In this document: positions 2,087 through 45,190 of the stretch, in pieces
Layout of the letters: each line of letters starts with the position of its first letter
Numbering within the stretch: position 1 is the stretch's first letter
Assembly: GCF_964213995.1 (NCBI RefSeq)
Contig: NW_027590156.1
Coordinates: 1-64,000 of the forward strand
Origin: Mustelus asterias
Taxonomy: Eukaryota
Length of the DNA stretch: 64,000 nt
Direction: 5' to 3'
Position numbers and translations under genes: made by a program
Notes under the pieces: generated by a model
What the model saw: the letters and a program-made list of their open reading frames with translations, nothing else
Told to the model about the DNA's origin: nothing
Databases searched by the model: none

Positions 2087-2169
2087 GGTAGCGTGGCTGA
2101 AACGTTGAGTGCACTAGCGTTAAGCTGTAGTTTCTAAAGCAACCGTGTCTTCACATCCCACCACTGCCC
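2087..2169 (+). pseudogene. tRNA-Leu pseudogene
   Basis: GGTAGCGTGGCTGA...ATCCCACCACTGCC termini match tRNA-Leu(AAG/TAG); interior decayed. Confidence 0.6.
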
Positions 2170-2171
2170 CA

Positions 2172-2582
2172 AGTTTCTTCTCCTTTGGCTGTTCAGTGAT
2201 TGGCATTGTGGTAAGAACAAAAACCGATGGTGCGTGCTGATTTCAGGGTGAACTCGTCAGGCCGAATGTTCCACTTTGTTGCTGTAACTATCCTGTGATT
2301 TCGTATGAGTGACACTAACTCATTAACTCGTTGACGTGCTGTCCAAGTGGTTTTGGTAATGGATCTGATATCCATTGTTGTTTTCCGCGGAAGATTTGAA
2401 CAGCACCCACTGGGATGCTCAGCTTCCATTCTCTTCAGTACTCCAGAATTCGTTCAATAAAATCAAAACCTTCCAAATATTCAGGCCCATTTTTCATGCT
2501 TCAAATCCGCATTCCTTCATTTCTGTTCATCAACGAGAATTTACCAAATCTCCAGCCGGAAATGGATGAAAACTGAATCCAA
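2172..2582 (-). pseudogene. Strongly decayed TCR V relic (beta-like motifs) with 23-RSS
   Basis: Minus strand reads ...RPDEFTLKSA..GFCSY, then CACAATG (2210-2204) + 23 bp + GAAGAAACT (2180-2172); leader-like stretch with a gtaaat donor near 2544. Confidence 0.4.
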
Positions 2583-2594
2583 TTTGGTGACAAC

Positions 2595-2889
2595 CTTGAT
2601 TTATGGGTGTTTGCAATTCCTCGGGCCTTTGTCACTGTCGGTGTCAGCGTGTGTCCCTCTTTGTCCATCAATATGATTCAGTTTCCCGAAAGGGTGAACA
2701 CATTGTTACCATCTGCATTCGCTTATTTGATGAATCCTCATGGTAAATGGTACAGAAAATCACAAGATGTTTGAAAGTTGGGAGACAGATTAGCACGTTC
2801 TCTTTTACTTTCGAGTGGATATTGCTTATTGACTCAGGGCCCGTATGTTACACAGTGGAGGATTGTTGAAACTTTCACTGAGCAACATT
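2595..2889 (+). pseudogene. Strongly decayed V relic with IgNAR/NAR-TCR-like motifs and RSS heptamer
   Basis: Leader-like DLWVFAIPRAFVTVG|gt (donor 2641); KGEHIVTIC (Cys 2714); WYRKS (2748); STFSFTFEWILLIDSGPVC; perfect CACAGTG at 2851-2857 + 23 bp + weak nonamer; frameshifts are needed to join the motifs. Confidence 0.4.
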
Positions 2890-3376
2890 TAAGCAGACAG
2901 CGGATTCACTTGGTGTGATGCTGGGTTCCAGTTCTACATATGCAATCATACATTCAACTTATGTCAGTTGCTGTTCATCCATTTTGTCTCATAGTTTGTA
3001 ATTATTGGATACTAAAACTGCGCAGAATGTTCCATATGTGTTCCCCGCAAAACCTTGTACAACTGCAGCAACAATTCGTTATTCTTGTTCTCCAGTCTAC
3101 TGGCAACAAAGGCAAAAATGTAATTCCCCTTCCTAAATGTTTGCTGCAACTCAACGCTAGCTTTATGCATTCCATCTACAAATACTCCTCGGATTCTTTG
3201 AATATCAGCACCAACGTTCCCACCTTTTCAAAAATGTTCTGCTCTTTCTATTTTTACGAAAAGGTGAATGCCTATTCACTGTCCAAAATTGAACCCGCCC
3301 TTATCTGTGCATTAAAACTTGCCATATGGCCAGTCTCGCTGCCTTGTCCCTACAGATCATATGTGTTTTAAGCTGA

Positions 3377-3443
3377 AGTTCCAGCGAGAACTCACGAGCC
3401 CAGGCTTACAAAACCAACCATCTAATCACTGAGCTATGGAACC
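3377..3443 (-). pseudogene. tRNA-Thr(TGT) pseudogene
   Basis: Reverse complement GGTTCCATAGCTCAGTGATTAGA...TTGTAAGCCTGGG; T-arm partly deleted. Confidence 0.6.
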
Positions 3444-4140
3444 AATTGCCATTAAGAGCGCAGAGTGAGTGCCTCATTATCAGTGAAGTGAGGAACAGGC
3501 TGGATTTTCAGGTGGGTGATGTTTGATAGATGTGGAAATGTGAGATGGGGAGCAGAGTTAAACGATGCAACTTGATAGCGGCAGAGTGTGTCCGTTACTT
3601 TAACTGAAGAATGAATGCCATGGTATCCTTCTTTAGAGCTCAACTCTGAAATTTCCAGCTCTGGGACAAGTTCATCCAGCTAAAAGATTAACCGTGTTAC
3701 ACCCTTCACAGACACTGTGAGGCCTGTTTTCATTTAATGAAGAAATCAACAAAAAGTTATTCACTCCATGGCTGAGAATCAAATCTGCTACATGTCACTG
3801 AAGCCATGCCACTATACCCCCAAGGAAGCTGATGTGAGACATTGGAAATTAGATGATCATTACCACTGTACTTCAAGTTAAATAACATTCATGAAAGCTT
3901 TGTCATTTTACACTGACATTTTAACATCTTATAAACAATTGCATCAAAATGCGTTATTTCCGCTTGTATTCACGTTATTTCACTTCCTGGGACTGAGCAA
4001 TTTCCACCTTCAAAATGTGTTGTTCAGTTAACCGTTTGTCATCAGTCCCGGGCTCTGGCGCTGAAACCATTGACTCTCAAACACTGAACCACCCGGGCTC
4101 CACTATCACCTGCTCAATTTTGCCCTGTCTATCATTCCTT

Positions 4141-4358
4141 GTAAGAAGTTTAACAACACCAGGTTAAAGTCCAATAAATTGAGTTTGTGACTTTATAAGC
4201 TCTGTTTGTGAACAGAATTCCCACTCACCTGAAGAAGGGGCTTGGAGCTCCGAAAGCTTGTGTGGCTTTTGCTTCCAAATAAACCTGTTGGACTTTAACC
4301 TGGTGTTGTTAAACTTCTTACTGTGTTTACCCCAGTCCAACGCCGGCATCTCCACATC
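4141..4358 (+). mobile_element. Short Penelope-like element end with a 34-bp inverted repeat and target-site duplication
   Basis: Perfect inverted repeat 4141-4174 / 4288-4321; direct repeat ATCATTCCTTGT at 4131-4142 and 4356-4367; paralogous empty site at about 12126-12165. Confidence 0.75.
4226..4262 (+). ncRNA. Minimal type I hammerhead ribozyme motif
   Basis: CAC-CTGAAGA-A-GGGGC-TTGGA-GCTCC-GAAA-GC-TT-GTG: conserved CUGANGA and GAAA core, stems I and II, palindromic AAGCTT helix III. Confidence 0.65.
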
Positions 4359-4813
4359 ATTCCTTGTGTCAGTTAATCCATCCTTTCTTATTCTTTATCC
4401 TGGATCCCCCTTGTGTTTTTTTTTACGGCGTGGTTCCTGATGATCATAAAATGCTGGAAATACTCAGCAGATCAGTTAATGTTTGGTGACAAAAGAGAAT
4501 AATTCTGAAATTAACAGCATTCTGAAAAGTCCCTGCCCGGTTTCGACGCTGAATCCTTTCACGTATGAGGAGAATTTGATAACCACCACACGATAGAAAA
4601 ATGACGATATTCGAAATGGAAGCAGATCTGGGTTTCTGGAGGAGCAACTAAACTGGTTCTGCAAGCCCTTGAACTCCTCACATCAATTTACATTTGCATT
4701 GTTTTTGCTGGTTCCTTCTGTCACAATTCATAATTATGCATTCCAATGCATTAAATTTTTGTGATCACATGTTCGGGCAAAGGTATTTCATTACGTTTAA
4801 AGTCAGCAGGATA

Positions 4814-4898
4814 ACTGACAGAGGTGGGATTCGATCCCATTCCTCCACAGATACCTTTTCCCTAAATTCAATAGTTTAAATTTCTCATGATCGCTAAC
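4814..4898 (-). pseudogene. Degenerate tRNA-Leu pseudogene (paralog at about 12755-12840)
   Basis: GGTGGGATTCGATCCCA B-box-like segment and CCTAAAT anticodon region on the reverse strand. Confidence 0.5.
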
Positions 4899-5567
4899 AG
4901 TGCAAAAGGTGGCTGTCATCTCTGGCATTGCCAGTGAACAGAATAAATGGAGCAGCGTTTAGTCAAATGTCCAACTGAACATCCTCCACCACTTAGTAAA
5001 ATGTTGGCAGATCCCCAGACTCAACATAAATTACCCACCCTATCTCGAAAGCCCTTAATTCCCTCAGATTCCAAAATACACTCTATCTCAGCCTTCAATA
5101 TCCTAATCATTGAGGATTCACAGATCGCTGGGCGAGAGAATTTCAAAGATTCACACATCTTTGATCGAATAAGTATCTCCTTGTCTCTATCCTAAATGGC
5201 TGACACGTGAGCAGGCATTTTGTAAAGTCTCATTCAAAATTTGAAGAAGTCCAAATATCACATCATTGTGAGATAACGTAATCCCTTAATATTTAACAAC
5301 AAACGGGAATGAGACAACTTTTCCTCACACTGAGAGTTGACTGATTTTTAATAATAATGTCTTGCACTTTTCGAAAAGGTGAATGCAATAACCGTCACAC
5401 TTCAGAAACAAATTACAGATGAAAACGGCAGAAATTGATGTGTGCCGGTTACTTTCAGCGATAAATATCTGTTCTGTGTTACCTGGTAAATTTCACAGGA
5501 TCAACAGAGGTGAGATTGGTGGGTCCTGAAATTTGGAAGTTACACGTGAACAGTTTGTGGGGCTATT

Positions 5568-7936
5568 GTGGGGCTACTGTCAGGGAAAGGCACAAATGAA
5601 AAGTGGAAGTTTTTCAATGAACAAATACTGGGTGTCCTTGATAGGTATGTCCCTGTCACGCAGGGAGGAAATGGCCGAGTGAGGGAACCATGGTTCACGA
5701 AAGAGGTGGAATTTTTTGTGAAAAGGAAGAGGTTAACCTATGTAGGGATGAGGAAACAAGGTTCAGATGGCTCGATTGAGGGTTACAAGTTAGCAAGGAA
5801 CGAGCTGAAAAAGGGGCTTAGGAGAGCTTGGAGGGGACATGAAAAGTCCTTGGCGGGTCGGATCAAGGAAAACCCCAAGGCTTTTTACTCTTATGTGAGG
5901 AATAAAAGAATGACCAGGATGAGGTTAGGGCCGGTCAAGGACAGTAGTGGGAACTTGTGTATGGAGTCAGTAGAGATAGGCGAGGTGATGAATGAATACT
6001 TTTTTTCAGTGTTCACCAAGGAGAGGGGCCATGTTTTTGAGGAAGAGAAGGTGTTACAGGCTTATAGGCTGGAGGAAATAGATGTTCGGAGGGAGGATGT
6101 CCTGGCAGTTTTGAATAAACTGAAGGTCGATAAGTCCCCTGGGCCTGATAAAATATATCCTCGGATTCTTTGGGAGGCAAGGCATGAGATTGCAGAGCCT
6201 TTGGCTTTAATCTTTGGGTCCTTACTGTCCACGGGGATGGTGCCAGAGGACTGGAGAGTGGCGAATGTTGTTCCTCTGTTTAAGAAAGGGAATAGAAATG
6301 ACCCTGGTAATTATAGACCGGTTAGTCTTACTTCGGTGGTTGGTTAATTGATGGAAAAGGTCCTTAGGGATGGGATTTACGACCATTTAGAACGATGCGG
6401 ATTAATCCGGGATAGTCAGCACGGATTCGTGAAGGGCAAGTCATGCCTCACAAACTTGATTGAATTTTTTGAGGAGATAACTAAGTGTGTTGATGAAGGT
6501 AGGGCAGTTGATGCCACATACATGGATTTTAGTAATGCGTTTGATAAGGTCCCCCATGGTCGGCTTATGATGAAAGTGAGGAGGTGTGGGATAGAGGGAA
6601 AGTTGGCCGATTGGATAGGTAACTGGCTGTCTGATCGAAGACAGAGGGTGGTGGTGGATGGAAAATTATCGGATTGGAGGCAGGTTGCGAGCGGAGTGCC
6701 ACAGGGATCAGTGCTTGGTCGTCTGCTCTTTGTAATTTTTAATAATGACTTAGAGGAGGGGGCTGAAGGGTGGATCAGTAAATTTACTGATGACACCAAG
6801 ATTGGTGGAGTAGTGGATGAGGTGGAGGGCTGTTGTAGGCTGCAAAGAGACATAGATAGGATGCAAAGCTGGGCTGCAAAATGGCAAATGGAGTTTCACC
6901 CTGATAAATGTGAGGTGATTCATTTTGGTAGGACTAATTTAAATGTGGATTACAGGGTCAAAGGTAGGGTTCTGAAGACTGTGGAGGAACAGAGAGATCT
7001 TGGGGTCCATATCCACAGATCTCCAAAGGTTGCCAGTCAAGTCATAGAATCATAGAATCATAGAAACCCTACAGTGCAGAAGGAGGCCATTCGGCCCATC
7101 GAGTCTGCACCGACCACAATCCCACCCAGGCCCTACCCCCACATATTTACCCGCTAATCCCTCTAACATACGCATCTCAGGACTCTAAGGGGCAATTGTT
7201 TTTTTTACCTGGCCAATCAACCAAACCCGCACATCTTTGGACTGTGGGAGGAAACCGGAGCACCCGGAGGAAACCCACGCAAACACGAGGAGAATGGATA
7301 GAGCTGTGAAGAAGGCCTATAGTGTGTTCGCTTTTATTAACAGGGGGTTGGAGTTTAAGAGCCGTGGGGTTATGCTGCAACGAAACAGGACCTTGGTGAG
7401 ACCACATTTGGAATATTGTGTGCAGTTCTGGTCACCTCACTATAAGAAGGATGTGGAAGCGCTGGAAAGAGTGCAGAGGAGATTTACCAGGATGCTGCCT
7501 GGTTTGGAGGGTAGGTCTTATGAGGAAAGGTTGAGGGAGCTAGGGCTGTTCTCTCTGGAGCGGAGGAGGCTGAGGGGTGACTTAATAGAGGTTTATAAAA
7601 TGATGAAGGGGATAGATCGAGTGAACGTTCAAAGATTATTTCCTCGGGTGGATGGAGCTATTACAAGGGGGCATAACTATAGGGTTCGTGGTGGGAGATA
7701 TAGGAAGGATATCAGAGGTAGGTTCTTTGCGCAGAGAGTGGATGGGGTGTGGAATGGACTGCCTGCAGTGATAGTGGAGTCCGACACTTTAGGAACATTT
7801 AAGCGGTTATTGGATACGCACATGGAGCACACTAGGATGATAGGGAGTGGGATAGCTTGATCTTGGTTTCAGATAAAGCTCGGCACAACAGCGTGGGCCG
7901 AAGGGCCTGTTCTGTGCTGTACTGCTCTATGTTCTA
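5568..7936 (+). mobile_element. 5'-truncated CR1-clade LINE (ORF2 reverse transcriptase), inactive
   Basis: ORFs 5568-6347, 6348-7055 and 7237-7860 carry KSPGPD, NYRPVSLTS, QHGF, DFSNAFDKV, GVPQGSVLG, FTDD and LVRPHLEYC; in-frame TAA at 6345; (TTCTAT/CTCTAT) tail. Confidence 0.95.
7043..7296 (-). mobile_element. HE1-like V-SINE (5'-truncated) inserted in the CR1
   Basis: (CATAGAAT)n tail and GGAAACCGGAGCACCCGGAGGAAACCCACGC V-core; it splits the CR1 codons SQV|DRA. Confidence 0.9.
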
Positions 7937-8401
7937 TTTCACCTCACTATCGATTTCATGTTACAGAAAACAGCAATAGCTATTATTATTGGTTGAAAAA
8001 TCATTTGTGTTCTAATTCAGCATGTCAAGTCACATCTGATGAGAACATAAGTAAATGAAATTAAAAGGGAATGGTTTCACGGTTACGCCAGGATAATTAT
8101 GTACCTATCTGGTTAGATTGAGGATTGACGGGAAGCGGACAGGAAAGGATTTGAACTTCAGTTGGAAATTCCCAAAGCATCAGTGGGCCGGTTTTCAATC
8201 TTTTGTTTATACTGGCAGTCATTCAGCCTATGTTCCTTTGTGTGCTCTTTAAAGGAAAAATCCATTCCTTCCGCACACGTTCCTTTCACCTAACGGCTGG
8301 GACTGTCTCGTTGTTCCTGCCAGAAACGACACCGCTCACACTCTTTCATTCAAGATGAGCTGTCAGACTTTAGATGGAAGGACCAAAACCCAAGTTAATT
8401 C

Positions 8402-8470
8402 TGGCAGTGGTGGGATTTAAACCCATGTCTCCGCTGAGATTGGAACCTTAGACCGCTCGGCCTCGCGTCC
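8402..8470 (-). pseudogene. tRNA-Leu pseudogene with deleted anticodon arm
   Basis: TGGCAGTGGTGGGATTTAAACCCA...CCTTAGACCGCTCGGCC is the reverse complement of tRNA-Leu. Confidence 0.7.
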
Positions 8471-9397
8471 AGACGTTGTAATCATGTAATTTACTGATAT
8501 AGCTAGTGAAATAATTTAGAAGGAATGGAGATGGGAAGGGCCAGCAGAAATCTCCAACCTAATTTTTCATTGAATCTGGTCATCCTGAAATGTGTAACAA
8601 ACAAAAATCATCTGCAGTCAGAAAAACAATGAGCTGCATTTAAGGGTCGGCACCATTTAAACTGTCCTCAAACTCGTCTGGTTCCCAATCTCCTGCCAGA
8701 AATTACAACAAAACTTTCTGCTGAATTTGCTCAGGGTCTTTATTTCAGAAAGGACAGGGCACAACGCGAGACTGAGATTTCTATGCATTTCCAGGAAATA
8801 ACTTATTTGGTTTCACGGTTTGGACGAGAGCAGCAAATCTTCATTTTCTGATCTGCAATCAAAAGAGCAGTATCCAATTTCTAACCACCAAGTTACAGCG
8901 TGTTTTACAATTTGCTTCATCCACGCTCCTTTTGTTATTGTAATTTTCACTCCGGACGACTTTCACGACAAACAAGATTCTCCTACAAAATGGCACGTTG
9001 TGATTCACTACCAATGATGTGTCCGGCCAATGACAACATGCCGCACATACTCCACGACTGTTATCACTTTCGTTTCCGACGGTTCAAACCGCACTGAAAT
9101 ATTTCGAAATGTTTTTCATTGAAGAGTGAGGGATAAGTTTCATAATTCAGTGCCAGTGTACATGGCAAAATCTGACCCATTGCCATCCAGATTTTTCCTT
9201 ATATCACCAGCTCTATTGGCAGCGTTTTGCAGCCCACTACTGTCCTTCTCTTTCAGTGTTTTTCCATGAACATTTGCGCTTGTGATATTTCCAATGAAGT
9301 AAACTTGAAAATATCACTCGACTGAATTTAATAGGTCCGCTTCCGATCAGAGAGTGAATCGGATTAGTTCTTACAGTTTTGCCAGAGCAGTAATTAT

Positions 9398-9468
9398 TTT
9401 CCTGAGAGAGAATTGAACCGAAACCTCACGAGCAGAGTGCGGAACACAAACCAGTGGACTCCAGGGCA
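9398..9468 (-). pseudogene. Degenerate tRNA-Glu pseudogene
   Basis: TTCCTGAGAGAGAATTGAACC...AACCAGTGGACTCCAGGG resembles the reverse complement of tRNA-Glu. Confidence 0.45.
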
Positions 9469-9679
9469 ACGAGTGAACTTAGTTTCTCAAACCGATTGAC
9501 CTCATATTCCTTTGCTCATTATTTTCATCTCAGATTTGTTTTACCATCGACCAGTTGCTCCTTCAAAATGTCCTGTTTGGATGGTACATAAGTGCCTCCT
9601 TCAGCCAATGACAACACGGATTGAGTTCGCTGCATCATGAAATTGACAGTGAGGTGAAATAGTCCCACAAGATGCTGAA

Positions 9680-9962
9680 GTTTAGAAGGATGAGAGGAGA
9701 TCTGACCGAGGGAATAAAATTCTAAAAGGGATTGATCGATTAAACGTAAACCATCCCGAACAAGAGGTCACAGGTATAGAATGAGAGGCGGTGGATTTAA
9801 AAGTGAGATGAGAAGGAAGTACTTCTCGCAGAGTGTGGTGAATTGGTGGAACTCGCTGCCCCAGAGCACGGTGGAGTCTCAATCGCTGGATGATTTCAAT
9901 AAGGAGATAGATATATTTCCAACTTAAAAAACTAATTAAAGGGATATGGAAAACAAGCGGGG
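9680..9962 (+). mobile_element. CR1 3' fragment
   Basis: TTTAGAAGGATGAGAGGAGATCT...TTCTCGCAGAGTGTGGTGAAT typical of the CR1 ORF2 C-terminus. Confidence 0.8.
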
Positions 9963-10144
9963 ATTTAAAGAGCAGCGAAAGATGAAATTAAAAAAAAACT
10001 TTGCTGATGCAGGCATCTCTCGCCAGAGACTCAGAAAAGTGCAATGTAATAGAAGTTGAACTGGCTGACAAATTCCACCTTTGTAAGGAATTTAAACAAA
10101 AGTTCCTTCGACAAATCAATCCTCAACAATGGCAAATAAGAGAA

Positions 10145-10209
10145 AGGATCCACCTAAATTTAGACGCAGTTTGCTGGGTTCAAAGTGCTCACCATTAGAC
10201 CAGAGAACC
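10145..10209 (-). pseudogene. Degenerate tRNA-Gln pseudogene (duplicate of the 11087 unit)
   Basis: The flank 10010-10140 is homologous to 10940-11085; GTGCTCACCATTAGACC matches the Gln D-arm. Confidence 0.6.
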
Positions 10210-10332
10210 TATAATTTCGCAGCCGGTTGCAAATGGTCACTCAAAGCATTTGACCCACTTACTGTTGCTGCCACATTGAATGAAAAAGGTCACATGCTTT
10301 GAGTGACCATTTGCTTCGGGCGGCTCTGTTCC

Positions 10333-10405
10333 TGTTTTTGTGCTGTGATGGTGAGCACCCTGGACTCCGAATGCAGTAATCGGAGTTCAGAGCTTGGTAA
10401 AAGAT
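10333..10405 (+). pseudogene. Degenerate tRNA-Gln pseudogene
   Basis: GTGATGGTGAGCACCCTGGACTCCGAATGCAGTAATCGGAGTTCA aligns to tRNA-Gln(CTG). Confidence 0.6.
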
Positions 10406-10742
10406 TGTTTTTTTTGCTAAAGCAGTTAATGGGTTTGCTGAAGGGAATTTAATTTTAAGTTCTCAGTAAGTGGAAATTTCAGCAAATTACACCGCAACCA
10501 CGGATGTTGCAGCGAATGATTCTACTGGCGTCATTGCATCAACCCCAGAGAACGATTGCTCAAGAATACAAAGCGCTGAGAGGCAGGGAAGCTACAGTGG
10601 GCATTGTGTCCACCTGGACGTGTAATTCACTCTGTTATCTGTCTCAATCTAAACCAAAGTTAGGCGGTGAGAGGCCAGAGTGCGACACGTTACCCGTGGA
10701 ATCAACAGCACTCTGAAGGAAGACTTTTATCCCAAAACACAT

Positions 10743-10827
10743 ACACACGCCCACACCTACACACACACACACACACACCCACACCCTCTCTCTCTCGCTC
10801 ACACACACACCACACACGCTCACACAC
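10743..10827. repeat. (CA)n / (CT)n microsatellite
   Basis: Directly visible. Confidence 0.9.
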
Positions 10828-11086
10828 TTGCTCAATAATTGCCAGACTCCAGTCGAATTGTTATTGTGTGACACCAACCGCTTATTTTTTTCAACAGAGG
10901 AGTTGAAGGACAGCGAAAAGATGAAAAACACTAACGTTGCAAGGCTCTGGCGCCTGAGGCTCAGCAATGTGCATTGTAATAGCAGTTGAACTGGCTGACA
11001 AATTGTCCTCTCTATTCGTGCTTTGTGAGAAATTGAAACGAAACGCCCTTCAGCAAATCAATCATCTGCCTTTGCAAATTAAAGCA

Positions 11087-11158
11087 AGGCTCCGCCGAGA
11101 CTTGAACTCGGATCGCTGGATTCAATGTCCAGAGTGCTCACCATTACACCACGAAACC
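11087..11158 (-). tRNA. tRNA-Gln-TTG: tRNA-Gln(TTG), nearly intact (U33>A)
   Basis: GGTTTCGTGGTGTAATGGTGAGCACTCTGGACATTGAATCCAGCGATCCGAGTTCAAGTCTCGGCGGAGCCT folds as a cloverleaf; invariant U33 is replaced by A. Confidence 0.75.
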
Positions 11159-11573
11159 CAACTCACGGCAGCCATCTGAAAATCGTCGCTCAATACTTGT
11201 GCCAATTTGAACAGCAGGGAGAAATATCAGTCCCGTTGCACAATCCCGTCAATTACCCACAACAATTCATAATTACATTGCCCTTGCTGGTTGCTCCTGT
11301 AAAAATGAGTACGCTACCTTCAACTGCATTAAATTTTACTGCAGCTGATCACATTCAAAGAGCAATGTTAGCATCGAACAGATATCAACCTTACTGTGGT
11401 AACTTGACTGAACAACATCAGCTTATCAGAGCTCTGCTTTCATCACACTGGAAGCCAATGTGAAAATATGAAGAATTTCAAATCTTAACAGACAGAAAGG
11501 GGTGTGTGACTGTGGACAATTGGCGCTGTGCATATTCCTGTAATCAGTCTCTCGGAAAATCAGTCGGATGGGA

Positions 11574-11630
11574 TCCTGGTGGTCTCGTGGTTAGGATTCG
11601 GCGCTTTCAGGGTCGCAGGCTGCGTTCGAT
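11574..11630 (+). pseudogene. 3'-truncated tRNA-Glu(TTC)
   Basis: TCCTGGTGGTCTCGTGGTTAGGATTCGGCGCTTTCA...GTTCGAT, then unrelated sequence. Confidence 0.7.
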
Positions 11631-12321
11631 ATATTAAGACTTAATTATTTTTATAAACAAACCAGCAATACTTCCTGGTCCAAAGCAGTTCTGCCAGAAT
11701 CGGTGGAGTGAGATTTGCAGTTTTGCTTCCGAGTTGGAAATGTCACACGTGCAACAGGTCAAGAACAAACACAAATAGTGAAAAACAGTGATATGATGCA
11801 AAACGCTGCCGATAGAGGTAGTGATACAAGGGAAAATCTGGGTGGTAATGGGTCAGATTTAACCGTTTGCATTGACAGAAATATCACTCATTTCTGGATA
11901 ACATTCTCGGGCTAAATTACAAGAAAACCTCTCCATGAATGAAATACTAAACTATTTGACTTCGACTGATTGCAAGCAGTTTTCATTCAGAAAGCAGTAA
12001 TTGTGAAATTTACAAAGCGGGATGGAGAAAGACTCAGTTTCAGCGGTGACACTGCGGGAGGAATGGAGAGCTGGAGTACACTGAGAAAAGCAGCAAAGTT
12101 TAAACATAACCGGAACCAACCAATGTTGCCCTTGACCGTTATTCCTTATGTCAGTTAATCCATCCCGTCTGACTCACTGTCACAGACCTTCCCTTTTATA
12201 TTCTTTACTGAGTTATTTCCGCTTGAAATACCGGAGAAAACTCAATAGTTCAACTCAAGTTTCGTGATAAACGAGGATAACTCTGTAATCCGAACCACTT
12301 TGAAACAAAGCCATCGGGAAA

Positions 12322-12395
12322 TGTTTCCACCTGGTTTCGAACCGTGGGCTTTCGAGATGCAAAGCGAGCATGATGACCACATACCAACGTGGGTA
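12322..12395 (-). pseudogene. Degenerate tRNA-Val pseudogene
   Basis: TGTTTCCACCTGGTTTCGAACC is the reverse complement of the tRNA-Val 3' half. Confidence 0.55.
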
Positions 12396-12469
12396 CTTGA
12401 TGCAGCTCCGATTTAATGGGAGAGCAACTAAACTCGTCCGACAAGCCCGTCGGTTGCTCACTTTAACAA

Positions 12470-16194: not shown

Positions 16195-16235
16195 CAGATG
16201 CTTTAGGTCGGGCGAGTTATCGCTCGACCAGCTAA

Positions 16236-33854: not shown

Positions 33855-35372
33855 TTCATGAAATTTGTTCATTAAGGTTGAGGGAAGTCTGTATAATTTC
33901 AGATTGTAGCTGAACATTATCCGAAACTCGATGTTACAGCCATGTTATATTTGCGCTCACCTCGGCCTCAAAAGCTTTCAGCAAAATCAGAAACCTTGTA
34001 TTTTCATGACGCAATAGATGTTCCTTTTTTAAAACCGTGCACATATTAGCAATATTTTCAGTCCACACCAGAATTTAATAGGTTTATAAATGCAGACTAA
34101 CATAATTCATCACCAACTGAAACATGTCTAATAGTATTGTGTGCTCAAAAATACAGATACAAGTGATACTGTCACTGAACGAGAGGAAATGGAGCACATT
34201 TTCCCGAAGCATCTTTTTAAAATTGTTCTTCATAATAACGAAATAGGGAAAACCTCTCAGACAGAAGAGGAAATCGAGAATCAAAGCAGACCGTCTGGAT
34301 CTCCTGTAGATGAACGAGATTTAGGCGCCAGAATGTTTGTCACACAGAATAAAGAGGGATCAAGTATAACTAACAGATCATTCTTGAATCTCTTCCCTTT
34401 AAAGATATTTGATTTGGTTTAAAAGCTGATCATGGTCAAACTCAAGAAAGCACCATGGGATGTGTATTACCCGTGACTCGATTTATTTTGTTGGTCAATA
34501 ATGTTTGCAATTCAATGCTGTATATTTCAGACATATTCAATCCGCAATGAAGACATCTGTGTTACATAAATGGATTGATATTAAATGTTGATTACCGAAC
34601 AAATACTCGATATAACTGTTTGAAGTTAATCGATCGTATATGAGAATGACGCATCAATGATGGAGCAGAAATCATTGCTCCCTTAGACATTTGTCCGATG
34701 AACGCTTTTAAATTTTGAAATTCGAGACAAGTTGAGACATCACGTTGAGAGTAACGGTTGTCTTCTTGCACTGAGGTAAATGGACTCTCAGTCCTAACCA
34801 TTCGAATCTGCAGCAATAGAGCGGAGTTGAACAATGCAGTCAGACCGATTGTATATTCCAGAGATATTAAATTCAGAATTTGGACATACATATTGAATAA
34901 CTGTGTTGATATTAAAAATTGAATGAAGATCCAAGGTGGATTGGGCATGCTAAATTACCCTTTGGTTAGATTGAATAGCCATGGGAAAGGAGTAGTGTTG
35001 CGGGGGAAACGAGGGAAATGGCCTGGTTATGATGTCCTGGCGTCGCTGCTGATTCGTTCGATCGAATACCTTTTCTGCACTGATTCTATGATTCTATGAA
35101 AAAAAATACTGAGTATAATTGGTTGAGATTATTCGCAGGAAGATAAGAATGAAGCATTGATGATTGAGCACAAATCAGTGCTTTCTTAGACATTTGCCGG
35201 ACGAACTCTTTTTAATTTTGAAGAACAAGATAAGTTGAGATATCAGGTTGAAAGTCAGGGATGTACTCTTGTATTAAGTGATATGGGCCCTCAATCATAC
35301 CATTCAAACCTGCAGCAACACTGTGGAGTTAACATTGTAGTCAGGCCCATTGAGGCCCCAATCCTATCACTT

Positions 35373-35445
35373 GTTTCTGCAGTGGAGTGGTTATCCCGTT
35401 CGCCTAAAACACAAAACGTTCCCGGTCCGAAACAGGGAAGCAGCA
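35373..35445 (+). pseudogene. tRNA-Val pseudogene (anticodon now AAA)
   Basis: GTTTCTGCAGTGGAGTGGTTATCCCGTTCGCCTAAAAC. Confidence 0.7.
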
Positions 35446-35625
35446 TTCTTTAAGCTTTCTCATGGAAGATGAGGGAAATCCTGTATGATTTCCGTTCGTT
35501 GCTGAACATTATCCGAATCTCGACATTACAACAATATTATCTTTGCTCTGACCTCAAACTCAAATGGTTTCTGCGAATAAGAAATGCTGATTTCTTTTTG
35601 ACGCACTGACAGGAAAGAAACGTCT

Positions 35626-36178
35626 CTACGTAAAAAATCTGCCTCGTACATCTCCTTCAAACCTTGCCCCACGCACCTTAAACAGATATACCCTAGTAAT
35701 TGACTCTTCCGCCCTGGGAAAAAGCTTGTGACTATCCACTCTGTCCATGCCTTTCACAATCTTGTAGACTTCGATCAGGTCTCCCCTCAACCTCCGTCGC
35801 TCCAGTGAGAACAAACCAAGTTTGTCCAATCTCTCCTCGTAGCAAATACTCTCCATACCAGGCAACATCCTGGTTAATCTTTTCTTTACCCTCTCCAAAG
35901 CCTCCACATCCTTCTGGTAGTGTGGCGAACAAATTTAAATATTATATTCCAAGTGCGGCCTAACTAAGGTTCTATAAAGTTGCAACATGACTTGCCAATT
36001 TTTAAACTCAATGCCCCGGCCGATAAAGGCAAGCATGCCGTATGCCTTCTTGACTACCTTCTCCGCCTGCATTGCCACTTTCAGTGACCTGTATACCTGT
36101 ACACCCAGATCCCTTTGCCTATCAATACTCTTAAGGGTGCTGCCATTTACTGTATATTTCCTATCTGTATTAGATCTT
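35626..36178 (-). mobile_element. CR1 fragment
   Basis: VVKKAYGMLAFI...LVRPHLEY...LERRRLRGDLIEVYKI. Confidence 0.92.
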
Positions 36179-37080
36179 CGTTGCTGAACATTATCCGAAT
36201 CTTGATATTGCAGCCATATGATCTTTGCTCTGACCTCGGCCTCAAATGATTTCTGTAAAATAAGAATGTTGATAGCTTTTTGACGAACTGACAGGAAAGA
36301 AACCTTTCGATTTTGACACTGTGCACATATTCGCATCACGTTCAGTCTACAACAGAATGTAAAGAGTTTATAGGTGCAGATTAACGTAGCTAATCACCAT
36401 CTGGAACTTTTTGAATAGTAGTATGTGCTCCAGGGGACTGACACAAGTGATACGGTAAGTGAACTATAGGAAATGGCGCATATTTCCCAGAAGAATCTTT
36501 TTTTTAATCGTTCTTCAAAACAAAGAAATAGGAAAAAAAACAATCAGACAAATGAGGAAATCGAGACTCAGTGCGGATCTACTGAACTTTCATTTAAATG
36601 GCCGGAATTTATGCGCCTGAATGTTTCACACCCAAAAAAGAAAAGACTCAAGTGTCAATAACAGATAATTCTTCAATCTCGTCTATTTAAATGTAGTTCA
36701 CTTTGTTTAAATGTAGTTCGCTATGGTCAATCTCATAATTGTGCTCTGTATTCCCCGGTGACTCGATTCCTGTTGGTCAGTTATATTTACAATTCTATGA
36801 TATTCAATTTCAGAGATATTCAATTCATAATGAAGACATATGTGTTAAATAATGCATTGAGACTAAATATTGAAACAAATGCTGAGTACAATTGTACAAT
36901 GAACGTTGTTGAAGTGTCATCTGGACTCGAAACGTCAGCTCCTTTCTCTTCTTACAGGTGCTGTCAGACGTTGTGAGATTTTCCAGCATTTTTTCGTTTG
37001 GTTTCCGATTCCAGTATCCGCAGTAATTTGCTTTTATTGCTGAGTACAATTGGTTGAGATTATTCGAAGGAAGATGAGAA

Positions 37081-37800
37081 TAAAGAACAAAGAACAAAGA
37101 ACAATACAGCACAGGAACTAGCCCAAGCCCGTGCTGCTCCCTGGTCCAAACTAGACCATTCTTTTGTATCCCTCCATTCCAACTCCGTTCATGTGCCTAT
37201 CTAGATAAGTCTTAAACGTTCCCAGTGTGTCCGCCTCCACCACCTTGCCTGGCAGCGCATTCCAGGCCCCCACCACCCTCTGTGTAAAATATGTCCTTCT
37301 GATATCTGTGTTAAACCTCCCCCCGTTCACTTTGAACCCATGACCCCTCGTGAACGTCACCACCGACCTGGGGAAAAGCTTCCCACCGTTCATCCTATCT
37401 ATGCCTTTCATAATTTTCTACACCTCTATTAAGTCTCCCCTCATCCTCCGTCTTTCCAGGGAGAACAACCCCAGTTTACCCAATCTCTCCTCATAACTAA
37501 GCCCCTCCATACCAGGTCAACCTCCTCTGTACTCTCTCCAAAGCCTCCACGTCCTTCTGGTAGTGTGGCGACCAGAACTGGACGCAGTATTCCAAATGCG
37601 GCCGAACCAACGTTCTATACATCTGCAACATCAGACCCCAACCTTATACTCTATGCCCCGTCCTATAAAGGCAAGCATGCCATATGCCTTATTCACTACC
37701 TTCTCCACCTGTGACGTCACCTTCAAGGATCTGTGGACTTGCACACCCAGGTCCCTCTGCGTATCTACACCCTTTATGGTTCTGCCATTTATCGTATAGC
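37081..37800 (-). mobile_element. CR1 3' fragment
   Basis: (AAAGAAC)n tail; FTQRVVGAWNALP. Confidence 0.92.
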
Positions 37801-38021
37801 TATAGAATGATGCATTAATGAAAGGCTAGAAATCATTGTTCACTTAGATATTTGCCAGAAGAACGCTTTTAAATTTTGATGTTCAAGATAAGTTGAGCAA
37901 TCAGATTGAAAGCAACGGTTATCTTCCTGAATTAAGAAGCATGGGCTCTCAGTCTGACCATTGGAACCTGCAGCTGTTGAACATTGCGGACAGTCCGATT
38001 TGCTGCAGTTTGCGTCCAGCT

Positions 38022-38093
38022 GTTTCTCCAGTGTAGTGGTTATTATGTTCGTCTGACACGCGGAAAGATCCTGGTTCGAAACGGAGCAGAAAC
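38022..38093 (+). pseudogene. tRNA-Val pseudogene (anticodon now GAC)
   Basis: GTTTCTCCAGTGTAGTGGTTATTATGTTCGTCTGACACGCGG...GGTTCGAAAC. Confidence 0.7.
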
Positions 38094-39164
38094 ATTCATT
38101 AAGCTTTCTCATGTCGCGTGAAGGAAAATTGCATGATTTCAGTTCGTTTCTCAACATTATCTGAACCTCAATATTACAGGCATATTATTGTTGCTCTGAC
38201 ATCAGCCTCCAATGTTTTCTGTAAAATAAGAAATGCTGACTTTTTTTTGATGCACTGACAAGAATGAAACGTTTCTAATCGTAGTGTCTGCTCCAGAAGA
38301 CTGACACAAGTGATATTGTAAGTGATCTATCAGAAATGGCGTTCATTTCCCAGACGATTCTTTTAAAAAATCGTTCTTCACAAAAAAGAAATAGAAAAAA
38401 AAACACTCAAACAAATGAGAGAATCGGGACTCAGTGCAGATCTTCTGGACCTTCCTATAAATGGCCGGAATTTATGCGCCTGAATATTTCACGCCCATAA
38501 TAAAAAAAGGCCACGAACAGTTAATTCTTGAATCACTTCCATTTAAAACGTAGTTGACTTTGTTTAAAAGCTGGTTATGATCAACCTCAAAATTGCGATC
38601 TGTATTACCCGGTGATTCGATTCGTTCTGTTGGTCAGTTATGTTTGCAATTTCAGTGATATTCAATTCCAGAGATATTCAATTCATAATGAAGACATATG
38701 TGTTAAATAATGCATTGATACTAAATATTGAATAATAAAACAAATACTGAGTCCAAGTGCTCAATGAGCTTTCACAAAATGTCATCTGGACTCGAAAGGT
38801 CAGCCCTTTTCTCTCCTAACAGGAGCTGTCAGACATTGCGAGATTTTCCAGCATTTTCTCTTTTGGTTTCCGATTCCAGCATCCGCAGTAATTTACTTTT
38901 TGATTACAATTTGTTGAGATTATTCGAAGGAAGATGAAAATGATGCATTAATGAATGGGCAGAAATCAATGCTCACTTAGATATTTGCCAAACGAAAGCT
39001 TTTAAATTTTGATGTTCAAGATAAGCTCTGAAATCAGGTTAAAAGTACCGGTTTTCTTCTTGAATTCAGTGACATGGGCTCTCAGTCTATCCATTGGAAC
39101 CTGGAGCAACGCAGCGCAGTTGGACATTGCAGACAGGCCGATTAGCTAAAATATGCTGTCAGCT

Positions 39165-39237
39165 GTTCATGTAATGTCATGGTTATCGCGTTCGCCTCAC
39201 ACGTGAAAGATCCCCGGATCAAAACCCGGAAGAAGCA
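39165..39237 (+). pseudogene. tRNA-Val(CAC) pseudogene
   Basis: GGTTATCGCGTTCGCCTCACACGTGAAAGATCCCCGG. Confidence 0.7.
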
Positions 39238-39288
39238 CTTTTGGACCATTCTTATTCAGGGAGTGCGAAGCCTGCATGGTTTAACTTC

Positions 39289-39600
39289 CTAGAATCATGC
39301 AGTGAAGAGGGAGGCCATTCGGCCCATCGAGACTGCACCGAAAACAATCCCACCCAGGCCCTATCCCCATGACCCCATGTATTTACCTACCTCGCCCCCT
39401 GGCACTAAGGGGAAATTTAGCATGGCCTATCCACCTCGCCTGCACATCTTTGGACTGTGGGAGGAAACCAGGACCCGGGGAACACGGGTAGAACGTGCAA
39501 ACTCAACACAGACAGTGACCCAAGCCTTGAGTCGAACCCAGGTGTCTGTGAGGCCGCAGTGCTAACCAATGTGTCACTGTGCCGTCCCACTGTGCCACCA
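39289..39600 (-). mobile_element. Diverged V-SINE
   Basis: Head, core and tail recognisable. Confidence 0.8.
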
Positions 39601-40999
39601 TCATTGCTCACCATTATGTGAATCTCGATGTTACATCAACTCAAATGCTTTTCGGAAAATCGGACCTTACATTAATTCAACTGCCTTTAGGAAAATCAGA
39701 AATGCTGTTATTTAGGATGCAATGGCAGGAAATAAATGTTTGTCTTGTTTGTACATATATTCGCAACTCGTTCAGTCCGCAACAAAATTTAATGCGTTTA
39801 CCGGTGCAGACTAACAGATTTAAACACCATCTGAAACATGTCGACCAGTAATGCGGGCTCATAAAGACAGACACAAGTAAAACTGTAACTGAGCTAGAGG
39901 AAATGACACACATTGCTTCGAAGCTTGTTTTTAAAATTGTTCTTCCGAATAAAGAAATAGGAAAAACCACTCAGACAGATGAGGAAATCGAGGATCAGTG
40001 CGGAACTGCTGGGCCTCCTGTCGATGAAAGAGATTTAAGTGCCAGAATGTTTCACACACCGAATAAAGAAGGATCACGTATAACTAACAGATCATTCTTA
40101 AATCTCTTCCCTTGAAAGATATTTGCTTTTGTTTGAAAGCTGACTGTGGTCAATTTCAAAAAGTACCATGGGATGTGTATTTCCCAGTGACTCGCGCTCT
40201 TTTGTTGATTAGCCATGCTTGCAATTCAATGTTGTCTATTTCAGAGATATTCAATTCAGAATGAGGACATTTGTGTTAAATAAATGTATTGAAGTTAAAG
40301 GTTGAATCAAAAGAACCGGGAAGATACAATGTGATGGGATGGGATTTATTTTCTCCGCCCATTTGCATATCGGCAAATATTCACTTTCTGCAAAAAGATG
40401 CCATGATTTTCGGTAAGCGATCAGAGAGCGCCCTCCGTGGACAGTCCAACAGCATTGGAAACAGACGGAATACCAAGAGCCCACAAATGTACACTCAGAG
40501 ACATATCCAGTGCAGCTACAACATTGGACAAGAGGAATCATCCGCTCAACATCCACACTGTTGGCACCCCTTCGCGTTTTAAAGCTTTCAGTCAATTTGC
40601 CTCTTACTCTTCTGAACTCCCGTGGATACAAACCTGGCGTCAACATCCTTTCCTCATCAGATCACCCGCTCAGAGCTGGTGATGGTTTCGTAAAACTCCT
40701 CTGAACTTTTTCTCATGCATTAACATATTTCTTAAGATAAGGAGACAAGTAGTGTGCACAATATTTGATATATATCCAATGCCCTCGCCAATGCCCAATT
40801 TTACGATCTATCCTTGTGTCGCCAGCAGATATAACATCCATATCTTCACTGCCTTCATCACTGCAGAAATCATCCCACTTTAATGCTTTTTGACAAATTC
40901 AGCCAGAATGTATTTGTTCAGATCAAATCGTTTTTCGTCAACTTGCTTGAGTTTAATGCTGAACAACAGAGATGGTTTGTGAGGGTATTTCTCTTAATG

Positions 41000-42130
41000 G
41001 GCGTCCAAAGGTCATGTGATATGGTGCTACATCACAGCTTGTGAGTAAATGTGGAGATCAGAGAATAAAATGGATAGGAGCAACACGGATAGGAAATTGG
41101 CTGAGTGCCAGGAAACAACTCATAGCTGTTTTTCGGACTGGAACAAAGTTTGCAGTGAAGGTGCCAGGAACAGGTTATATGACTCTTGATCTTCCCGGCA
41201 TAGTAATGGCCGAGAGCTTGGTATGGAGGTCAGACTTTCAAAATCTGTGTATAATGCAAAACATGGAAACATTGCCAACCATCAGAAGACCGAGCAGAAC
41301 TTCAGAACGAAAAAAAAACTAATTTGTGGAATTGTCCTGCAATTGGGAGATTTAATTGATTGCATGTAAAGTTACAATATAGTTTTGTTAAGCAGAATGT
41401 GAAGAGACAAAGGGAAATGATGAAAACGCTATGAATGTGGCGGTAAGACGCCGAGGGACCTGAGTGAATATGTGCATAGATCATTCATGGTGGAAGATAG
41501 TTTGAAAGAGCGGAAAAGAAAATAGTTAACAGTCTTTGTTGGGGAAAATAATACAGAAGCAAGGAAGTTATGCTAAATTTGTAAAAAGCACTGGAAAATA
41601 GTCAACTGAAAAATTGCGTCAAATTCTGGGCACCAAACGTAAGGAGAAATGTAAAGCCAATAGGCTGGATGCAGGGGGAAAATACGAGATTAGTTCCAGA
41701 GATCAGAAACTTCAGTTCCGAAAATATATTGGTGAGGTTCGGACTGATTTCCTTGACAGGAAGTTGCTGATGTGATCCCATTGAGGCCTTCAAAATCCTG
41801 AGGGGTCTTGACAGAGTAGATAGAGAGTAATTGTTCAATAGCAGATGGATTTTGTAACAGAGGGCGCGGGTTGAAGTTAATTGGTGAAAGAAGCATGGAG
41901 TCATAACGAAAAACATTTTCGGACAGTGACTGATTCAGACCTGCAATCTGCTGTTTCAGAGTACGGTTCAGGGAGCGCCAATTGATGGTTTCAAAATGGG
42001 ATTGGATTATTGTCTGGAATTGAAAAAAATGCTGGACTGTGGGCTATAGAGTGTTATTGGATGAATTGCTCCTTTAGAGGACCAGCACATACATGATGCT
42101 TCAAAATGGCCTTCTTCTCTCCTGTAAATA
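41000..42130 (+). mobile_element. Old, highly degenerate CR1 remnant
   Basis: RIGNWLSARKQ and AATTCTGGGCACCA motifs, collinear with CR1 ORF2. Confidence 0.6.
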
Positions 42131-42649
42131 GTCTATCAGTATGGAAAATGAAGTCAGTGGCAAAGTGGTAATATCACTGGGAGAGGATTTCTGAGGGGAG
42201 GCAATTTTCTCAAGGTATATGTTCAAATCTAACTGCAAAAGAACGTGGGTTTTAAAATGCAATTGCAATTTTGAATTTAAACCTCGTTCCGTAATTGCGG
42301 CCAATACAAGTAATATAGCAGATCCTCTAATGCCCAGCAGAAAAGGAAACCATCCATCATTTCCCAGTTTGGCCCATAGCTGACTCAAGGCCCACACGTG
42401 TTTGGCGTTTACATGACTTCTGTGATGATCTAGGAAACCAATGAATTCAGAGTACTCGCGATTGCCAAATTATGCTGGCCTGGCCAGCTGTGTATACACC
42501 CCATGAAAGAATAAGAAACAGCAACGAAAATCAGCATTTCATAACATCTGCAATAGCAAAGGACGTCCAGGAGATGGCAGTGAAACCGTGCTCTTTGGCA
42601 CGACGCGAAACAGAACGTCTCAGTTATTGCTGCAATAGATGCAGTCTTT

Positions 42650-43385
42650 ATCCATCCTAAACTAGACCCAGTTTATGTGACACAAAATCATATTTCTGAT
42701 TACGTGACAATAATTCTCAATTGATTCTATACTCAGCAAAATCCTAGTTGTCACTATACCGCACCAAGCCTCATTTGATATTACATTGCTGGAATCTGCA
42801 ACGTATAAAGAAACCTCGACGATACCTCAACCACTGCTGCACCAGTCCACCTCCCTCTTTATACCGAATAATATCCTGTCTCTAATTATTGTTCTATTTC
42901 ATGACTCGTTCATTGCTCTAATGTCCCTGTCAAATCTTTTATCAATCTGAAGCCTTAGTTTGAAATTATTGCATCAGCTTTGTCTCAGTTTATATCATAC
43001 AATGCCCAGATTCAGATTCAACAGTATTTGAACCGATTGAACAGGTGGAGTTTTATTGCGCTAGCTGCTGTGTCCTTTATTAATGCGCCAAACCATACCA
43101 CTGTTCATTTTACACATTATCCCCTCTCAATTATTGCTTTACTCTGCATTGCCTCACTTTTTATTCCACTGGGTCACATCTCTGTTTATATCACACGAGA
43201 TTATATCCCTATATTCTAATAGCGTCCATGTGAGATTACATTACACTAGAACCTGTCTCAGTTTAAATTATAGTACACATTGTCTCTGCTTACATTAGAA
43301 TAAACCTTGACTTTGTTACAGCTGCGTAATTCATTTTTCTGTCTATGTGAGAAAACATCACGCTGGTTAGTACTACGCTATACAA
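42650..43385. repeat. Degenerate satellite of about 26-27 bp (TCTCTGTTTATATTACACTGGACCCTG-like)
   Basis: Same motif family as 47590-49520 and 59490-61810. Confidence 0.55.
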
Positions 43386-44185
43386 ATTCCGGACAAATGT
43401 GAGGTAATGCATTTTGGAAGGTCTAATACAGATAGGACATTTACAGTAAATGGCAGAACCCTTAGGAGTATTGATAGGCCAAAGGGATCTGGGTGTACAG
43501 GTACACAGGTCACTGAAAGTGGCAAGGCGGGTGGAGAAGGTAGTCAAGAAGGCATACGGCATGCTTGCCTTCATCGGCCGGTGTATTGAGTTTAAAAATT
43601 GGCAAGTCATGTTGACGCTTTATAGAATCTTAGTGAGGCCGCACTTGGAATGTATGGTCAATTCTGGTCGCCACACTACCAGAAGGATGTGGAGGCTCTG
43701 GAGAGGGTACAGAAAAGATTTACCAGGATGTTGCCTGGTACGGAGGGCATTAGCTATGAGGAGAGGTTGGAGAAACTTGGTTTGTTCTCACTGGAGCGAC
43801 GGAGGTTGAGGGGAGACCTGATAGAAGTCTACAAGATTATAAGAGGCATGGACAGAGTGGATAGTCAGAAGCTTTTTCCCAGGGTGGAAGAGTCAATTAC
43901 TAGGGGGCATAGGTTATGGTGCGAGGGGCAAGTTTTAAAAGAGATGTACGAGGCAGATCTTTTACACAGAGAGTTGTGGGTGCCTGGAACTCGTTGCCGG
44001 GGAGGTAGTGGAAGCCGACACGGTAGTGACTTTTAAGGGGCGCCTAGGAAAGTACATGAATGAGATGGGAATAGAGGGATATGGTCTTCGGAAGCGTAGC
44101 GTGTTTTAGTTAAGTCGGGCAGATGGTCGGTGCAGGCTTGGAGGGCCGAAGTGCCTGTTCCTGTGCTGTAATTTTTCTTTGTTCT
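43385..44185 (+). mobile_element. CR1 3' fragment
   Basis: ORFs 43450-43809 and 43650-44036 with CR1 C-terminal motifs. Confidence 0.92.
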
Positions 44186-44705
44186 ATACCCGCTCTCAGT
44201 AAGCACTGAACTGGACCCAGTCTACATTCATATTAGTACAAGTGCTGTATCAATAATTGTTGCACTCGACACTGTCTCTGTATCACTGCACAAAACCCGT
44301 CCTTCGTTCATAATACAACAGATCGTATTCGATGGATTGGCTATGCAAAATTGCCTGTTATTGTCCATAGGGTATGTGGATTCGCCATGGTAAATGTGTG
44401 GGGCTAACGGGGACAGGGCAGAGGGGAGGGCCTGGGTGGGATGCAAACTCGGTGAGCCAGATGGTCTTTTTCTGAACTCTAGGGATTCTATGGTTCTATG
44501 TCTAAGAATTATCATATCATACCTTGCTTAGACATTCGAGTGCTTATTTCTTTTAAATATTCTTTTCTCCAATTACCCCCTTTGGAGCAATGATTTCTTT
44601 CAGCAATTTCCCTTCAGTTTTCCAAGTGATAACCTTCAGTCCATCTCTGCCTTCCATGAGTGTATGAAAACACCAGACAGTTCATGTATTTCAACTGAAG
44701 AACAT

Positions 44706-44830
44706 TTAATATGTAACTATTTATTGACAACCATTCTGCTGTGTGCTCTTGCACACAAAACGATTTCAATCTGACTATCTTGCTCCCAGCGTTGACTTAT
44801 CTGTCATTAAAAATCTGTTGGAAAATGGAT
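44706..44830 (-). pseudogene. Possible V-segment 3' relic with RSS-like signal
   Basis: FSNRF..DKSTLGAR*SD*NRFVC (DSxxYxC spacing), then CACAGCA + 22 bp + ACATATTAA. Confidence 0.3.
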
Positions 44831-44987
44831 AAATCACATCTCGAATGACGAGGAGATTACTGGAAATTGATCCTCTTCGTGTCTCACTAAAGTTCCTGAT
44901 TTTCGACTCAATTATGTGCTGATTTGTGAAAATGATGGCGGCAGGAGATAATTACACCTGTAATTCTCAGACTTCTTATTCCTATTA

Positions 44988-45190
44988 ATGCAAATGATTG
45001 AAACATCAGCTGCTCTCCAGAGATGGAGCAATATTTCTGTTTAACCGTTACATTCGCCAATTCCATGGTAACCATCCTAAATATGTTCTACTGTGTATAG
45101 GTTGTACAATCTCTGTAACACGATGAATCAGGATCAGGTATATTATGAGGGTGGATATAAACAGTGATATTGCCTGGTGAACATGGACAG
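44988..45190 (+). pseudogene. Possible V-segment 5' relic: octamer, leader and FR1
   Basis: ATGCAAAT at 44988; ATG 45023 MEQYFCLTVTFA..|gtaacc; then SVT....QVYYEGG.TVILP with frameshifts; the residual intron is only 33 nt. Confidence 0.35.

Follow-up and report, generated by a model that had tools for sequence, protein, structure and literature searches.

T cell receptor V relics and tRNA genes in the shark Mustelus asterias: the probable flank of a duplicated IgM minilocus

The current study deals with the first 64,000 nucleotides (the window) of Mustelus asterias contig NW_027590156.1 (here C124; 1.12 Mb, in an assembly of 3.68 Gb), in which remnants of T cell receptor (TCR) variable (V) segments lie among tRNA-derived loci. 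The window is probably the upstream flank of an IgM minilocus and part of a segmentally duplicated unit, at least 105 kb long, which has been copied dozens of times in the immunoglobulin heavy chain (IgH)/TCR-alpha-delta complex, and the V relics and tRNA blocks are likely to be passengers on this unit. The evidence is the colinearity, copy number and fixed geometry of the unit, the disruption of one V pseudogene (V1) in all copies read, and the conservation of the exons of a tRNA-Pro gene. A previous sequence-only reading had described the region as a graveyard of V segments interleaved with tRNA genes, and had placed it either at the distal edge of a shark TCR locus or in an orphon field. 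Neither placement was correct, as the window flanks an IgM minilocus inside the complex.

The duplicated IgM unit

Positions 1-105464 of C124 are colinear with C71:6958620-7082037, in blocks of 90–99% identity (most 95–99%). In agreement with the sequence-only reading, no diversity (D), joining (J) or constant (C) segment was found within the 64-kb window, yet a VH-D-D-JH-C set lies 21–37 kb past its end. The VH segment of this IgM minilocus is located at 84.7 kb on C124 and is followed by two D segments, a JH segment and four C exons, the last of which (at 100.6 kb) matches mu chains.

Among the best 40 of 226 candidate V1 copies, which are 92–100% identical, seven lie on C71 and six on C91. 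An IgH C exon was found 55–88 kb away, in the head-to-head geometry of the window, for 25 of the 40; no other V1/IgH C geometry within 100 kb was seen for any of the 40 among the matches listed. The census of IgH C exons on which this comparison is based holds at least 67 C matches in the field of paralogous loci. The colinear unit and its paralogous copies show that V and tRNA loci were duplicated together, as had been proposed.

C71 (20.4 Mb) carries IgH C exons, three TCR-delta constant (C-delta) exons, a J-alpha array and, at 18.42 Mb, C-alpha. Three 10-kb samples taken just upstream of C-alpha contained 20 J motifs. Judged by its sequence content, the locus is the antigen receptor complex (AgRC) of Flajnik et al. 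2025 (PMC12227049).

Past the colinear stretch C124 and C71 diverge, and C71 runs into a NARTCR cassette. This cassette (C71:7085500-7091340) is intact, consists of a NAR V-D-J and a supporting V with two tandem recombination signal sequences (RSS) of the 23-nt-spacer type, and lies 4 kb beyond the IgM unit in the C71 paralogue of the window. On C124 the minilocus is followed by C2H2 zinc-finger arrays (108–126 kb) and then by V segments on both strands, some intact and some broken, with more tRNA blocks; the intact V segments start about 120 kb beyond V1. Further C2H2 arrays are present on C71 at 9.6, 18.25–18.36 and 18.8 Mb.

TCR alpha/delta V relics

The search for V relics combined scans for motifs, RSS and profiles and drew on as many as 65 V queries of this genome. 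Support from nhmmer, tblastn and the Pfam V-set profile was obtained for four TCR alpha/delta V pseudogenes, V1 to V4 (table 1), while the reversed window gave no V match at the same thresholds. V relics in both orientations had been described earlier, three of them as unambiguous TCR-type pseudogenes; of the four supported here, V1, V2 and V3 are on the minus strand and V4 is on the plus strand, in agreement with the two orientations.

None of the four relics has an open V frame. V1 is complete though broken, with a split leader and the Cys, WYRQ and YYC motifs, and its V exon contains two stops and one frameshift; two of its frames match Pfam V-set (E=1.5e-4 and 1.9e-3). The other three are partial. 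A 3' RSS with a 23-nt spacer was found only in V1, being degenerate in V2 and gone from V3 and V4. V2 was detected by nhmmer (E=1.3e-26; its 5' piece, E=0.0027), and Pfam alone gave no family for it. V3, which carries a 71-bp insert derived from a long interspersed element (LINE) at 21572-21642, matches an intact V by tblastn (E=1.4e-18), and V4 is 69% identical in amino acids and 82% in nucleotides to an intact V on C232 (V-set E=0.015).

The closest relatives of the relics are intact 23-RSS V genes of dense V scaffolds. A V3-family homologue is annotated as TCR alpha chain-like in a sawfish, and the natural single-V PDB matches of the V1 family are TCR alpha chains. These best matches support a TCR alpha/delta type, alpha and delta being taken together, rather than VH, VL or NAR V.

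The V frame of V1 is open in none of the 27 copies read, whereas by the same test an intact member of the family scores as open; an intact V1-family gene is present on C420. Since V1 is broken in all 27 copies, it is regarded as cargo, and its death likely occurred before the expansion or early in it.

Other candidates were rejected. An NAR-like fragment had been suggested, but a profile of three NAR V domains and single-sequence nhmmer searches over the window matched only the 3' end of V1. The fainter relics at 2204-2460, 44235-44300, 44850-45250 and 45990-46020 did not exceed reversed or control scores, and no Pfam family was found in any of the six frames of 2204-2460 and 44850-45250; very old relics of families outside the query set could escape these searches. 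A V relic with an RSS at 2172..2560 (minus strand) was also dismissed (profile E=0.81), its RSS likeness being due to chance. Homologues of 2180-2560 (71–74% identity) occur on C12, C23, C72 and C75, and those on C12, C23 and C75 adjoin the same tRNA-Leu and have neither a V signal nor a conserved heptamer, indicating that the segment is the flank of a tRNA cassette. Thus the tRNA-Leu relic noted beside the RSS-like nonamer at 2172 was confirmed, but the RSS was not.

tRNA-derived loci

The window was scanned by nhmmer with 52 tRNA queries (46 from outside the window and six from within it; E<=0.01), a set that may miss further isotypes. The scan gave 27 matches, comprising four heads of short interspersed elements (SINEs) and 23 non-SINE loci between 1770 and 39236. 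SINE heads mimic tRNA genes and were left out of the tRNA counts. No tRNA locus was detected by these queries beyond 39.3 kb of the window, and none in the reversed window. Control DNA (90 kb, as nine stretches from nine large chromosomes) contained no non-SINE tRNA locus and six SINE heads. The density in the window is far above this control (P about 2e-16 when the control is set at its upper 95% bound), and the earlier estimate of about 25 tRNA loci was borne out. Sampled controls were used because a genome-wide search with RF00005, which scored 63 candidates, gives no background density.

At least 21 of the 23 loci are decayed or altered. Rfam returned four matches at its gathering score, two of them (at 11087 and 15082) in the block 1770..17243. 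ARAGORN made six calls, of which one is a SINE head, and mislabels the tRNA-Pro gene as Lys or Ala; the 194 calls obtained at a lowered threshold were discarded as noise. The SINE, presumably the element named HE1, is represented by 18 pieces in the 64-kb window versus 19 in the 90-kb control.

Over 264 kb of C124, 52 tRNA and 33 V matches form 12 runs, against 41 expected (0 of 20000 shuffles). V and tRNA loci therefore alternate by blocks and not singly, which upholds the described alternation at the level of blocks only. The distance from the end of tRNA-Pro to the end of the V1 nonamer (30766) is 571 bp, in accordance with the 570 bp given before. In 290 kb of other scaffolds, chosen around V matches within dense arrays of intact V segments, 17 tRNA loci and 87 V matches were counted.

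Several other tRNA arrangements were observed. A kb-scale Val-Glu-Leu-Thr cassette with its flanks (window 1435-3750) is common to C23, C75 and C12 at 70–76% identity. A decayed, intron-containing tRNA-Ile(TAT) at 16100-16192 (plus strand) shares 81 of 98 bases with an intact copy on C96. The interval 33780-40310 holds nested local duplications (71–82% identity), each with a tRNA-Val relic. A second, homogeneous type of array is seen on C16 (97.3 and 98.4 Mb), where 1.8-kb units with tRNA-Lys(TTT) and tRNA-Thr(AGT) are repeated in tandem.

Table 1. Features of the 64-kb window.
Feature	Position	Strand	Description
Duplication unit, upstream part	1..64000		Unit of at least 105 kb; continues into IgM minilocus
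Block of 15 tRNA-derived loci	1770..17243	both	Glu, Leu, Thr, Val, Gln, Asn and Ile types; mostly decayed
tRNA-Leu relic	2086-2168		Adjoins rejected RSS candidate at 2172
SINE reference copy	16235..16582	-	348 bp, tRNA-headed
V4 relic	19570..19697	+	5' third of V exon only; 3' part lost
V3 pseudogene	21445..21863	-	Leader and 5' two thirds; 3' end replaced by LINE
V2 pseudogene	22850..24146	-	Split by LINE/SINE insertion; 3' part 22850-23130, 5' piece 24092-24146
tRNA-Arg(ACG) gene	25798..25870	-	Near intact, Rfam 59.8 bits; last base unlike most paralogues
Decayed Arg-type tRNA locus	27192-27264	+	nhmmer/Rfam
Decayed Pro-type tRNA locus	28018-28098	-	nhmmer/Rfam
tRNA-Pro(AGG) gene	30105..30195	-	18-nt intron at canonical 37/38 position
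V1 pseudogene	30766..31281	-	Split leader (ATG 31281), intron, V exon, 23-RSS at 30804-30766
Four decayed tRNA-Val loci	33782..39236	+	Each inside a local duplication

The tRNA-Pro(AGG) gene

The exons of tRNA-Pro are identical to those of intronless Pro(AGG) genes on C4, C10 and C17, the mature sequence is intact, and a T run lies within 45 nt downstream. The gene is present at all 26 paralogous loci, which had been chosen by V1 similarity. In 19 of the 27 copies compared the exons are identical to those in the window, six copies have one or two changes, and two are decayed. The joint decay of V and tRNA loci proposed previously thus applies to the V relics and to the majority of tRNA loci, with tRNA-Pro(AGG) as an exception.

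Among the copies, the exons have a diversity of 0.024–0.034 and the distal flanks one of 0.05–0.07, compared with 0.28 for the intron and 0.25 for the 20 nt upstream. According to the available text of PMC6130373, a conserved body with a divergent inner flank and intron is the mark of active human and mouse tRNA genes, and the pattern of tRNA-Pro agrees with it. Because the exons are conserved beside a hypervariable intron and 5' flank, as in this published signature of transcription, tRNA-Pro(AGG) is likely to be active. The activity of tRNA-Arg(ACG), which has an upstream diversity peak of 0.175 versus 0.041 in the distal flank, is uncertain. The active-gene pattern is mostly absent from five relic tRNA loci used as controls, two of which deviate in part.

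The exact 36-nt 5' exon of tRNA-Pro occurs 47 times in the genome, 41 of these on C71 or small scaffolds. A V1 match (two of them partial) lies near each of the 24 loci read among the 41; the intron is present in 23 and one could not be parsed. Of the six loci elsewhere, three are intronless with the same exons and three have introns. Two of the latter (C24:20987216 and C12:94078166) are fused directly to a SINE and resemble retrocopies of pre-tRNA. Sharks have been reported to be rich in intron-containing tRNA loci (available text of bioRxiv 10.1101/2025.06.08.657570).

Origin of the V and tRNA blocks

The following course of events would account for the window. Kb-scale tRNA cassettes, an old duplicated family also found on other chromosomes, may have landed among TCR alpha/delta V arrays. 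One mixed block would then have come to lie beside an IgM minilocus, where its V segments were inactivated by a frameshift, by stop codons and by inserted LINEs and SINEs. Expansion of the IgM minilocus, probably by unequal exchange between long, near-identical units, would have multiplied the block. Most tRNA loci would have decayed neutrally, while tRNA-Pro(AGG) would have remained an ordinary, transcribed tRNA gene that purifying selection maintained. This explanation does not require the tRNA genes to take part in V(D)J recombination.

Several observations weigh against carriage of the window on an IgM unit as passive cargo. C124 is unplaced, and its linkage to C71 is inferred from paralogy. 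The copies are related by descent, so that counts across them are not independent events, and some small scaffolds may be uncollapsed haplotypes. Among the matches listed, 15 of the 40 V1 copies have no IgH C exon within 100 kb, owing to short contigs, an incomplete list or true loss. The tRNA loci among intact V arrays are left unexplained by passive carriage on the IgM unit. With regard to transcription, the body of tRNA-Arg has a diversity of 0.050, compared with 0.041 in the distal upstream flank, and so does not stand out as conserved, and the relic controls are not clean, one having an upstream diversity of 0.158 and another a body diversity of 0.017 versus 0.07.

It is unlikely, though conceivable, that the tRNA blocks were kept as RNA polymerase III/TFIIIC boundary or open-chromatin elements for the independent activation of miniloci, with tRNA-Pro as a functional part of the unit. 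The tRNA loci lie between the rearranging units and not inside them: none was found in C124:40-130 kb (the IgM core), in 200 kb around five C-delta D-J-C units, or in 100 kb sampled near J-alpha/C-alpha. This absence fits passive spacer cargo, and a boundary role is also compatible with it. Shark IgM miniloci rearrange independently at spacings of at least 120 kb (available text of PMC2435157), and in humans a tRNA repeat has reportedly been linked to boundary activity (PMC4041453). However, the decay or alteration of at least 21 of the 23 loci and the decay of tRNA-Pro in two of 27 copies argue against such a function, and selection on the tRNA product accounts for the exon conservation without any chromatin role. 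A contribution of the tRNA genes as homology or fragile sites for ectopic recombination, by which V segments were shuffled and amplified, is very unlikely. Four of 36 distinct paralogue breakpoints (3426, 25776, 27252 and 30195) lie within 30 bp of a tRNA locus, but 6.6% would be expected to do so (P=0.21), and no excess was seen within 100 bp (P=0.75) or 300 bp (8 of 36, 32% expected, P=0.93); the recombination-prone homology invoked earlier was therefore not supported. Two copies drop from 97–100% to 91–92% identity at tRNA-Pro, which transcription-associated mutation explains equally well.

The V relics do not lie outside the antigen-receptor loci, as an IgM minilocus is adjacent and copies occur on the C-alpha chromosome. 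That they nevertheless represent an orphon graveyard or the distal edge of a single TCR translocon is extremely unlikely: the window itself is free of D, J and C segments and C-alpha is 11.4 Mb from the C71 copy, but the IgM minilocus lies 21 kb past the window, intact V segments follow further along C124, and C-delta units and the J-alpha/C-alpha array are found on the chromosome that carries seven copies.

TCR-delta constant genes

Of 29 candidates for a C-delta query, 19 matched, and none of these 19 contains a stop (C71:7138105, 11043423 and 12270568; C436:226387; C123:615232; and 14 more). Seven C-delta exons that were compared are 88.8–99.0% identical. All five of the 19 loci that were read have a transmembrane exon that is intact, and several J segments lie upstream. 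Two of these five have a free D with 12/23 RSS, and one read was too short; in the other two a V is apparently fused to D in the germline, as suggested by a shared D end and RSS. The apparent V-D joins are located directly upstream of J and C-delta (C436:213681-213728 and C71:11023741-11023780). Short-read contigs fall into two C-delta classes, with 3 and 29 differences in about 246 bases, although the run may represent the assembly's own sample. A shark-like C-alpha query matched two distinct exons (C71:18419404 and C546:240162), while Pfam PF09291 detected neither C-alpha nor any control. The DNA sampled upstream of the J-alpha array on C71 contained zinc-finger genes and neither C-delta nor V.

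TCR delta thus appears, from the arrangement of these exons, to be organised as multiple miniloci among the IgM clusters. There is about an even chance that the complex as a whole grew by copying of composite units, with many (V)-D-J-C-delta miniloci, some with germline-joined V-D, placed among IgM miniloci and apart from J-alpha/C-alpha, and with active tRNA genes possibly bounding the units.

Relation to known systems

In humans, tRNA clusters lie near TRA/TRD (14q11.2) and in the extended major histocompatibility complex (MHC). The shark and human regions are alike in having tRNA and C2H2 zinc-finger genes beside immune loci, but the shark cassette is also present on unrelated chromosomes. 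No paper on a possible orthology of the shark and the human 14q11.2/MHC tRNA clusters was found in the part of the literature that was covered.

TCR alpha/delta V exons, some of them pseudogenes, between IgH/IgM clusters have been published (PMC12227049, available text and Table S1). The elasmobranch AgRC described in that text resembles the present locus in that IgM miniloci and NARTCR cassettes occur together with TCR alpha/delta V segments of either orientation, and C-alpha lies on the same chromosome. In contrast, tRNA is never mentioned in that paper or its two supplements, and no composite duplication unit is described in the text available. Shark IgM miniloci (VH-D1-D2-JH-Cmu) occur 15–200 times per genome, at intervals of at least 120 kb (Malecek et al. 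2008, PMC2435157, available text), a spacing similar to the unit of at least 105 kb found here; the content of the spacers is not described there, and the available text does not mention tRNA. As far as the Squalomix report (10.1101/2025.06.08.657570) is available, shark tRNA loci are clustered, with an excess of intron-containing genes, as in the current study, but are tied there to histone genes, with immunoglobulin and T cell receptor unmentioned, whereas here it is the duplication of immune genes that multiplies an intron-bearing isotype. Within the partial coverage of the literature, neither tRNA genes in the shark antigen-receptor complex nor the anatomy of its unit was found. V relics among IgM clusters were known; their co-amplification with tRNA blocks on a defined IgM unit, including one likely active intron-bearing tRNA gene, is a real feature and, within that coverage, a new one.

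Fish TCR genes have been described as translocon-type (PMC6795676; PMC12227049, in the text available). Table S1 of the AgRC study lists one delta-constant gene model each for the stingray and the catshark, compared with the 19 matches obtained here. Multiple shark C-delta genes were not found in the literature covered, which was partial, and earlier shark TCR papers (Ott 2021, Deiss 2019, Criscitiello 2006) could mention additional ones.

These results define, as a physical unit of at least 105 kb with identifiable cargo, what is copied when shark IgM miniloci multiply. Its V cargo explains the presence of dead TCR V segments between IgM clusters, and the unit supplies markers for dating the expansions. 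If multiple intact D-J-C-delta units are confirmed, they would be relevant to allelic exclusion in shark gamma-delta T cells, and to the question of whether immunoglobulins alone are organised in clusters.

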